Part shown: positions 11,787 to 11,971 of the stretch, piece by piece
Numbering within the stretch: the stretch's first letter is position 1
How the letters are laid out: every line of letters starts with the position of its first letter
From: Candidatus Saccharimonadota bacterium
GTDB lineage: Bacteria > Patescibacteriota > Microgenomatia > UBA1406 > GWC2-37-13
Length of the DNA: 32,000 nucleotides
Assembly: GCA_016700135.1 (NCBI GenBank)
Contig: CP065004.1
Location: 780,001-812,000 of the forward strand
Reading direction: 5' to 3'
Notes under the pieces: generated by a model
What the model saw: the letters and a program-made list of their open reading frames with translations, nothing else
What the model was told of the DNA's origin: nothing
Database searches by the model: none
Made by a program: the position numbers and the translations under genes

Positions 11787-11971
11787 TGGTGCCGGAGGTG
11801 GGAGTCGAACCCACACAGGCCGAGGCCTACAGGTTTTTGACCCGCCTAAAATATGTGGCGCGAGAGGGAGTCGAACCCTCACGAGGTTGCCCTCATCAGT
11901 TTTTGAGACTGACTTGTCTGCCATTCCAACATCGCGCCATATTTCGGTGGGTGCCATTCCACCACTCCGGC
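11787..11971 (-). other. split class-II tRNA shell (Leu-like paralogue) enclosing tRNA-Leu(CAA)
   Basis: 5' piece (11971->11939): GCCGGAG/TG/GTG-GAATGGCACC-CAC/C/GAAATAT. 3' piece (11855->11787): CATATTTT/AGGCGGGTCAAAAACCTGT/AGGCC-TC-GGCCT/GT/GTGGG-TTCGACT-CCCAC/CTCCGGC/A/CCA. The acceptor is 7/7 complementary, and the D, variable and T arms are canonical. The anticodon arm is aberrant. Confidence 0.55.
11856..11938 (-). tRNA. tRNA-Leu (anticodon CAA), class II
   Basis: Hand fold: GGCGCGA/TG/TTG-GAATGGCAGA-CAA/G/TCAGT-CTCAAAA-ACTGA/TGAGGGCAACCTCGT/GAGGG-TTCGACT-CCCTC/TCGCGCC/A. Confidence 0.9.

Follow-up and report, generated by a model that had tools for sequence, protein, structure and literature searches.

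Introduction

The closest described system to the arrangement reported here is that of the genomic islands and prophages that occupy transfer RNA (tRNA) genes (Islander-type tDNA targets; PMC4383910). In such cases, foreign DNA lies inside a tRNA gene, the insert preserves tRNA function, and a displaced fragment of the old gene remains. The same features appear in a 32,000-nucleotide (nt) stretch of DNA from Candidatus Saccharimonadota bacterium (GenBank assembly GCA_016700135.1, contig CP065004.1, positions 780,001 to 812,000), hereafter called the window, whose own coordinates are used throughout. Each of its two tRNA genes, one for tRNA-Leu(CAA) and one for tRNA-Thr(GGT), lies complete between the two halves of another tRNA gene. 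We refer to this arrangement as a nest, to the complete gene as the inner tRNA, and to the flanking halves as the shell. Some nest junctions fall in anticodon or T loops, which are the usual crossover sublocations of islands. However, islands replace only the 3' part of their target, and the one 3' fragment that they displace ends up kilobases away as a direct repeat, whereas nests supply a whole tRNA in an insert of ~100 base pairs (bp), displace both halves, which sum to one gene, and carry no integrase.

Other known systems resemble nests in part. Archaeal disrupted tRNA genes, including those that carry introns or are split or permuted (PMC4033280, PMC4390854), also have unusual interruption positions and helices formed by the flanking sequences, but are restored at the RNA level by a splicing endonuclease and a ligase acting at a bulge-helix-bulge motif. 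In contrast, nests have no such motif, the outer gene cannot be restored, and the interrupting sequence is itself an apparently functional tRNA. Group I introns in the anticodon loops of bacterial tRNA genes, and homing elements in general, share with nests the target-homologous flanks that allow spread to intact alleles. Nests differ in having no ribozyme (101-nt insert, no Rfam intron match), and the function of the host gene is kept by substitution rather than by splicing. Partial, non-functional tRNA sequences are also known to adjoin working genes as tRNA fragments and pseudogenes (PMC9897764). Those fragments are tandem 3' pieces left by integrases (as at our loci L045, L081 and L102), whereas a nest consists of a matched 5' and 3' pair around a complete gene. 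Finally, Ponchon and Dardel reportedly engineered a 'tRNA scaffold' for the expression of a chosen RNA inside a tRNA body. The cargo likewise sits within a tRNA body whose acceptor and T arms are intact, but this is a laboratory design, whereas nests are natural, their cargo is another tRNA, and any scaffold role is putative.

A full-text literature search on nested, interrupted and mobile tRNA genes, and on tRNA introns of the candidate phyla radiation (CPR), returned no account of one tRNA gene lying inside another, in agreement with an earlier reading of the Leu locus from its letters alone (the sequence-only reading), which knew of no bacterial precedent. Nests can be regarded as an addition to the known disrupted tRNA genes, and the arrangement is without described precedent in the literature searched. 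tRNA genes are usually seen as among the most stable, vertically inherited genes. In this reduced CPR genome, foreign alleles with matching anticodons appear to have overwritten both of the tRNA genes examined (2/2) from the inside, leaving the old gene as a readable fossil, and the same Leu nest occurs in lineages whose neighbouring proteins are only 48% identical. Nests thus give a directly testable picture of tRNA gene turnover through lateral transfer. They also present a natural tRNA within a tRNA-like body, which raises questions about processing by RNase P and RNase Z, and they may point to a new kind of mobile unit.

Results and Discussion

Anatomy of the Leu nest

The two tRNA genes that ARAGORN and Rfam detect in the 32-kb window both lie on the minus strand. 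The inner tRNA-Leu(CAA), an 83-nt gene read 11938->11856 that we designate 'type C', had been recognized by the sequence-only reading and is called by both programs (ARAGORN, 11855-11938; Rfam RF00005, 11856-11938, 54.6 bits versus a gathering score of 29). It has no encoded CCA. Like the inner tRNA-Thr(GGT) described below, it forms a cloverleaf above the RF00005 gathering score with a 7-nt anticodon loop, and both are presumed to be working genes.

The two halves of a second tRNA-Leu(CAA) gene surround this inner gene (minus strand, 11971->11787), with every arm of the outer gene that had been listed from the letters found in place. The 5' arm of the shell (11971-11947) corresponds to positions 1-25 of a tRNA-Leu(CAA) and comprises the acceptor strand GCCGGAG (11971-11965), the dinucleotide TG, and the D arm GTG-GAATGGCACC-CAC (11962-11947). 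An insert of ~101 bp (11946-11846, boundaries accurate to +/- 1-2 nt) then begins with a left flank of C followed by GAAATAT, continues with the inner gene, and ends with the right flank CATATTTTAG, in which C and ATATTTT are followed by AG. The 3' arm of the shell (11845-11787) resumes with a degenerate anticodon hairpin, GCGGGT-CAAAA-ACCTGT (11845-11829), the variable arm AGGC-CTCG-GCCT (11828-11817), GT, the T arm GTGGG-TTCGACT-CCCAC (11814-11798), the acceptor strand CTCCGGC (11797-11791), which is complementary to GCCGGAG at 7/7 positions, and a terminal ACCA (11790-11787).

The two insert flanks can pair as a clamp, GAAATAT (11945-11939) with ATATTTT (11854-11848), through six Watson-Crick pairs and one G.U pair, and an imperfect extension by CCCACC/GGCGGG is possible. 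This is the 7-bp helix proposed from the letters. The 4-nt ATAT direct repeat noted at the same time also exists, but it lies within the palindromic clamp and no resident sequence is duplicated, and therefore it provides no evidence for a target-site duplication. In the minimum-free-energy fold of the whole nest (-82.2 kcal/mol, z = -4.1), the outer acceptor strands, the clamp, and each arm are paired.

With the insert removed, the shell retains a 7-bp acceptor stem, a D arm, and a T arm. Its anticodon region, as had been anticipated, does not form a 5-bp stem closed by a 7-nt loop, has neither U33 nor a readable anticodon, and instead folds into a 6-bp stem (two G.U pairs) closed by the 5-nt loop CAAAA. 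When the outer halves are joined in silico, ARAGORN calls a tRNA at almost any junction, with an arbitrary anticodon; the natural join is called, versus 0/1000 of the shuffled-arm controls, and the resemblance of the shell to a tRNA thus exceeds chance. The intron, relaxed, and transfer-messenger RNA (tmRNA) modes of ARAGORN applied to the Leu locus call the inner gene alone, and Rfam searches of both tRNA loci in E-value mode return the inner tRNAs, a T-arm fragment, and nothing else. Neither a tmRNA nor a two-piece tmRNA is indicated: ARAGORN -m finds none, the Rfam tmRNA match covers only the 17-nt T arm at 12 bits, and the acceptor carries C3:G70 rather than G3:U70. Because tRNA finders report the inner gene only, nests are missed in annotations.

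Relationship of the Leu shell to intact genes

Syntenic loci in relatives were reached via homologues of the methyltransferase-like protein encoded immediately downstream of the Leu locus (11163-11708, minus strand; 100% identical to NCBI IPM65_04165 of a Candidatus Roizmanbacteria (CPR/Patescibacteria) genome). Several locus labels refer to the same contigs (L008 and L133, L009 and L132, L002 and L131, L003 and L149). An uninterrupted tRNA-Leu(CAA) of the outer type, GCCGGAGTGGCGGAATGGCAGACGCGCAGGTCTCAAAAACCTGTAGGCCTCGGCCTGTGTGGGTTCGACTCCCACCTCCGGCA, is present at the syntenic position in L008, L009, L132 and L133, as the sequence-only reading had suggested looking for; the neighbouring protein in L008 and L009 is 59% identical to that of the window.

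Compared with the L008 gene, which we designate type A, the window shell carries four substitutions in the 5' arm (21/25 identical) and the ~101-nt insertion that separates the D arm from the anticodon arm. The remaining differences are an A28>G substitution and the loss of 2 nt (CT) from the anticodon loop, and the other 50-51 consecutive nt of the 3' arm, CAAAAACC to GGCA, are unchanged. The arms therefore sum to exactly one gene, with no duplication or loss at the insertion point and only the 2-nt deletion in the loop. The inner gene is foreign in type, being 81/83 identical to plain type-C genes (e.g. L139) and ~74% identical to the shell type.

A promoter-like site, TAGACT-17-TATAAT (11991-12019, minus strand; 10/12 match), lies ~20 nt 5' of the shell, and the block that includes it, GTATAATATAA, is kept at the Leu locus in relatives, where it always precedes the outer or plain gene. 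The stretch from this block to the inner gene has no reported promoter-like site, and the 5' end of the shell is only 33 nt from the inner gene. Because an intact gene occupies the same syntenic position behind the same promoter in relatives, the sequence comparison indicates that the Leu shell is the resident gene of this locus, split by insertion and, given the 5-nt anticodon loop left by the 2-nt loss, unable to decode. The previously suggested insertion of a tRNA cassette into an older paralogue thus holds with regard to insertion, but the host is a positional orthologue rather than a paralogue.

The Thr nest

The second tRNA gene of the window, a canonical tRNA-Thr(GGT) at 4369->4298 (minus strand; called by ARAGORN, and by Rfam with 73 bits versus a gathering score of 29), is nested as well (4424->4275), a finding that goes beyond the sequence-only reading, as do the recurrence of nests across relatives and the lateral movement described below. 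An intact tRNA-Thr(GGT), GCCCGAATGGTTCAGTGGTAGAACGCATTCTTGGTAAGAATGAGGTCGGGGGTTCGATTCCCCCTTCGGGCT, is found at the syntenic site in L131 and L149, with a close variant in L132 and L133. The 5' arm of the Thr shell, GCCCGAA TG GTTC-AGTGGTA-GAAC G (4424-4400), corresponds to positions 1-26 of this resident gene and is identical to the L131 and L149 genes at 25/25 nt. A perfect 18-nt palindrome, CCCCGCCAGCTGGCGGGG (4399-4382), then stands in place of the resident anticodon arm CATTCTTGGTAAGAATG of L131 and L149, and is followed by the retained variable loop AGGTC (4381-4377) and the left insert flank ATAGATT (to 4370). The 5' strand of the resident T stem and the start of the T loop (GGGGGTTC) are missing at this point. 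The inner gene, which is ~80% identical to the resident type of tRNA-Thr, is followed by the right insert flank CCTGGA and the 3' arm (together 4297-4275), in which GATT represents the end of the T loop, CCCCC the 3' strand of the T stem, and TTCGGGC the acceptor strand (7/7 with 4424-4418), ahead of the discriminator T. This 3' arm, GATTCCCCCTTCGGGCT, is identical at 17/17 nt to the intact L131 and L149 genes.

The retained parts of the Thr shell (25 + 5 + 17 nt) are therefore identical to the intact gene, and GATT is the sole repeat (4 nt) at this nest. With its anticodon arm replaced by the palindrome and the 5' half of its T arm replaced by the insert, the Thr shell lacks the features of a functional tRNA. 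The L131 contig carries a nested Leu gene with an intact Thr gene, and the Thr gene of L149 is intact as well; the Thr nest is therefore the younger of the two.

The palindrome core CCGCCAGCTGGCGG (4397-4384), centred on a PvuII site, is found again between genes at an unrelated position in a relative (L010 2223-2236) and may be a small repeated palindromic element. CCCGCC/GGCGGG pairs occur only twice in the window, in the Thr palindrome and at the Leu clamp. This was considered as a link between the two nests and set aside as weak, given that similar GC-rich hairpins in relatives are ordinary terminators.

Recurrence of nests among relatives

The same Leu nest is present in L001, where 182/185 nt are identical to the window and the neighbouring protein is 85% identical. 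A metagenome scan with the first 23 nt of the inner Leu gene yielded 13 loci. Nine of these (L137-L140, L142, L145-L148) carry plain type-C tRNA-Leu(CAA) genes that match the inner gene at up to 81/83 positions and lie in diverse surroundings. Two others, L143 and L136, are nests at the syntenic Leu locus, with a neighbouring protein 48% identical to that of the window. The final two, L141 and L144, seem plain at first look but are decayed nests. The occurrence of the same Leu architecture in the independent assemblies L001, L136 and L143 also answers the concern that the window might be misassembled here.

The nests of the window, L001, L143 and L136 share a core: their inner genes are identical, their junctions coincide (..AAATAT|inner|CATATTTT..), and all carry the A28>G substitution and the 2-nt loop deletion. 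These shared features indicate that the nest core has one origin. The outer arms are less uniform: the acceptor strands of L143 and L136, GCCCGAG/CTCGGGC, are those of the plain 'type-B' genes of L134 and L135, whereas the arms of the window are of type A. That the outer arms are mosaic, and match different functional alleles, points to recombination between the nest and intact genes.

A different Leu nest is found in L002 (L131 contig), in which a type-B gene identical to the plain L134 gene lies inside an A-like shell. This shell keeps GCCGGAG/CTCCGGCACCA, its 5' arm reaches the anticodon loop, positions ~38-57 are lost, and the nest has an 8-bp clamp of its own, TCCCGATG/CATCGGGA. With regard to a MITE or other small transposon, the flanks of the Leu inserts form imperfect inverted repeats, CCCRCC-NAAATAT/ATATTTT-N-GGYGGG in one case and TCCCGATG/CATCGGGA in the other, which differ between nests and are not accompanied by a target-site duplication. 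Because the L002 and Thr nests have junctions of their own, at least three independent nesting events have occurred in a narrow clade, always with the same anticodon inside and outside. Close relatives also have plain genes (L134, L135, L008 and L004).

When the 188 tRNAs at all fetched loci (~130 from other phyla) were each deleted and the flanks rescanned, a real 5'-arm shell was found only in the window and L001. A contig scan with the T arm and acceptor strand of the shell, which is too general a query, gave 120 loci spread over many phyla; most were plain tRNA-Leu genes or tandem 3' fragments, and no nests were among them. Among these other phyla, L045, L081, L102 and L104 carry tandem tRNA-Leu 3' fragments after an intact gene with a spacing of ~91 nt. 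Such arrays are the classic footprint of repeated integrase-mediated events and are clearly unlike nests.

Two further loci were considered as nests and not accepted. The L010 contig begins inside a T loop; its type-B-like T arm is interrupted by ~68 nt that contain an internal tandem repeat, and the locus is not interpretable. The L003/L149 contig begins inside the 3' arm of the Leu shell, and so is no proof of a Leu nest on its own.

Recombination and decay of the shells

The L149 contig does provide evidence of recent exchange. Window and L149 sequences are identical at 119/120 nt over the 3' end of the shell and the adjoining intergenic DNA (~11696-11816; L149 1-120), and identity falls to ~75% from ~11696, at the start of the methyltransferase-like gene. 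This sharp switch in identity marks a recent recombination tract that ends beside the tRNA-Leu locus.

The Leu shells form a decay series, in which the state of the shell ranges from near-perfect (window) through L143, in which the D arm is broken, and L136, to mere traces in L141 and L144, barely recognizable in L141. In the L143 shell, a 17-nt insertion destroys the D stem and the 3' arm has been partly converted to type-C sequence. The L136 shell has a 22-nt deletion between CAAATA repeats, its acceptor pairing is reduced to 5/7, and its T stem forms by G.U pairs only. The traces in L141 and L144 are AATGGTACCCGCC upstream and GGTTCAACACCCCAC downstream. Loss of the D arm, T arm or acceptor pairing in L143, L136, L141 and L002 argues against a general need for the tRNA-like fold.

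It had been argued from the letters that an ordinary decaying pseudogene would not keep every other arm intact. This objection is answered by recombination, in that the arms of the shell match the current functional alleles of relatives. The arms were thus probably functional sequence until recently.

The window and L001 shells differ at 2/102 nt, whereas the third codon positions of the adjacent gene differ at 100/182 (55%) and the downstream intergenic DNA at 20%. This conservation (binomial P about 5e-8) begins and ends exactly at the ends of the shell. We favour recombination over selection as its cause because of the mosaic arms and the recombination breakpoint, with tracts likely to end inside the arms as the only well-conserved sequence available.

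Proposed origin of the nests

We consider it likely that each nest represents the replacement of a gene by insertion of a short tRNA cassette, which would then rely on the resident promoter for its expression and spread by way of homologous recombination in the shell arms. On this account, a DNA piece of ~85-105 bp would enter a resident tRNA gene, bringing a complete tRNA gene that shares the anticodon of the resident but differs from it in sequence type, together with only 6-12 nt of native leader and trailer. For Leu, the piece would have entered cleanly at the hinge that separates the D arm from the anticodon arm; for Thr, it would have entered the T arm, and the anticodon arm would have been replaced as well. 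The resident gene would thereby lose its decoding ability and persist as the two flanking halves.

We infer that transcription starts at the resident promoter, because the only conserved promoter-like site lies 5' of the shell and the shell extends just 33 nt ahead of the inner tRNA. In the resulting precursor, the 5' half of the shell would serve as leader and the 3' half as trailer. The inner tRNA would be released by RNase P, an endonucleolytic 3' cut, and CCA addition (the inner Leu gene lacking an encoded CCA), and the shell halves, which could pair with each other, would be by-products. The nest allele could move between lineages by ordinary homologous recombination because its arms are homologous to intact genes in relatives, and the shell would decay with time.

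Several observations weigh against this proposal. No integrase, att repeats, target-site duplication or ribozyme was found that might account for the insertions. The Thr nest is known from the window assembly alone. The analysis covers 32 kb of this genome, which leaves room for another intact copy of the resident type elsewhere. Some changes in the shells preserve pairing, namely the G.U pairs in L001 and L136 and T11-A24 in the window, and the low divergence between the window and L001 shells may fit purifying selection as well as it fits recent recombination.

Alternative explanations

In place of rare illegitimate insertion, a dedicated mobile mechanism is conceivable, though we think it improbable; it might take the form of a mini-cassette mobilized in trans or an integrase footprint, a nuclease break in the tRNA gene with capture of a tRNA fragment, or retro-insertion of a pre-tRNA-sized transcript. 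The at least three independent nests in one narrow clade, always of matching anticodon, are consistent with such a mechanism, as are the flanks of only 6-12 nt in all three inserts and the inverted repeats around the Leu inserts. In addition, the Leu insert has the look of a primary transcript: its short leader starts with a purine, and a T run closes its trailer. The L002 nest has junctions in both the anticodon loop and the T loop, and the Thr nest has one in the T loop; these loops are reportedly the classic sublocations of integrase crossover in tRNA genes (Williams 2002). The window alone also has an inserted stand-alone GIY-YIG open reading frame (ORF; 6400-6684), a DDE transposase and a PolX gene.

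However, there is neither an attL/attR direct repeat of a tRNA segment nor a target-site duplication, and no segment is duplicated in the Leu arms. Pfam scans of 30 of the larger window ORFs revealed no tyrosine or serine recombinase domain, only the DDE transposase (818-1900). The flanking repeats are unlike between nests. No further cassette copies occur within the window, scans of viral contigs with both inner genes gave 0 matches, and a phage database search gave generic tRNA similarity only, with no sign of phage origin. Similarly, no group I or II ribozyme core was detected, as Rfam matched only tRNA, E-value mode included.

A related and equally tentative idea is that the insert acts as a new kind of selfish 'replacement cassette'. 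Such a minimal tRNA gene would disrupt an essential resident of matching anticodon, take over the promoter and role of that gene, and home into intact alleles, perhaps via a nuclease-made break or a pre-tRNA-sized RNA intermediate. As in homing elements, the nests show presence/absence polymorphism at one site, with flanks homologous to the empty allele. The GIY-YIG ORF is the only homing-endonuclease candidate, but it encodes a small protein without a DNA-binding domain. If this idea is true, many tRNA genes in the window genome and in related CPR genomes should be nested, and the cassette would be unlosable.

Somewhat less probable still is that the shell is kept by selection as a tRNA-like leader/trailer scaffold, a role also considered in the sequence-only reading, in which the acceptor/T-arm mimic, 3' ACCA and clamp would aid folding of the inner precursor, processing by RNase P and RNase Z, stability or termination. 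The near-identity of the window and L001 shells, bounded exactly by the shell ends, is what such selection would yield, and the outer acceptor strands of the window, L143, L002 and the Thr nest pair at 7/7 positions. The Leu unit as a whole also folds well (z = -4.1), and leader-trailer clamps occur in two unrelated nests (GAAATAT/ATATTTT; TCCCGATG/CATCGGGA) as well as beside the plain type-C L139 gene. At this last locus, as in L140 and L142, a 7-bp helix, TGGTAAA/TTTACCA, directly abuts the plain gene, and therefore clamps are not restricted to nests. In contrast to what a scaffold role would predict, the D arm, T arm, anticodon arm or acceptor pairing has been lost in L143, L136, L141 and L002, and plain genes suffice in L134, L135, L008 and L004. 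Moreover, conservation can be inherited, given that the arms match functional alleles of relatives and a breakpoint flanks the locus.

It is very unlikely that the outer gene is still a working tRNA, whether its halves are rejoined after intron-like excision of the inner tRNA or assemble as a two-piece tRNA. The acceptor, D, variable and T arms and the encoded ACCA of the window Leu shell are intact, bacterial leucyl-tRNA synthetase is not known to read the anticodon, and an RtcB-like ORF (15009-16088) lies 3 kb away. Yet the insert-free Leu anticodon loop has 5 nt and no U33, the Thr shell has a palindrome for an anticodon arm and is missing half of its T arm, and shells decay in relatives. 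The split tRNA released by RNase P/Z excision, as had been suggested from the letters, is thus not supported as a decoder for either nest. No bulge-helix-bulge is present at the Leu junctions, which form a plain 7-bp duplex with a 2-nt bulge, and the intron mode of ARAGORN is negative. RtcB does not act on 3'-OH and 5'-phosphate ends, the kind that RNase P and RNase Z produce. The RtcB-like neighbour was accordingly rejected as a ligase for the halves, its ORF also being truncated and absent beside the L143 nest.

An assembly or binning chimera can be dismissed for practical purposes: although the Thr nest is found in a single assembly and the L003/L149 contig breaks inside the Leu shell, the Leu nest occurs in independent NCBI and Joint Genome Institute (JGI) assemblies (L001, L136, L143) with lineage-specific differences, and the Thr arms correspond precisely to both ends of a single gene.

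Neighbouring genes

The GIY-YIG ORF (6400-6684, plus strand) encodes a stand-alone nuclease of 94 amino acids (aa) and lies between a Lactamase_B_3 gene and dnaB. The spacing between these genes is ~46 nt in L131, L132 and L149, so that the ORF represents a ~370-nt insertion found, like the Thr nest, in the window genome alone. The DDE transposase gene (818-1900, minus strand), with an rve_3 integrase core and HTH domains, is ~2.4 kb from the Thr nest.

Near the Leu locus, the conserved sequence TGATATACTGAAAnTACATGG (11709-11740, minus strand) stands directly 5' of the methyltransferase-like gene, and suggests an extended -10 promoter with a nearly leaderless mRNA. On the other side, a 694-aa ORF (12791-14875, plus strand) has a GC content of 57-61%, versus ~43% for the genome, and encodes a Pro/Thr-rich linker without giving a Pfam match. 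Its homologues adjoin the Leu locus in L131 and L001 and not in L132, L004 or L143. Together with a 351-aa ORF and the truncated RtcB-like ORF, both within 15009-17144, it probably forms an acquired block. The ORF at 17532-17891 (plus strand) corresponds to a 119-aa fragment of argininosuccinate synthase, a protein of 540-545 aa at the corresponding place in relatives, and may be a pseudogene or reflect a frameshift. Further downstream, the ORF at 25401-27254 (plus strand) encodes a PolX-family DNA polymerase of the gap-filling/end-joining type, with Pol beta-like thumb and palm, HhH, and PHP domains.

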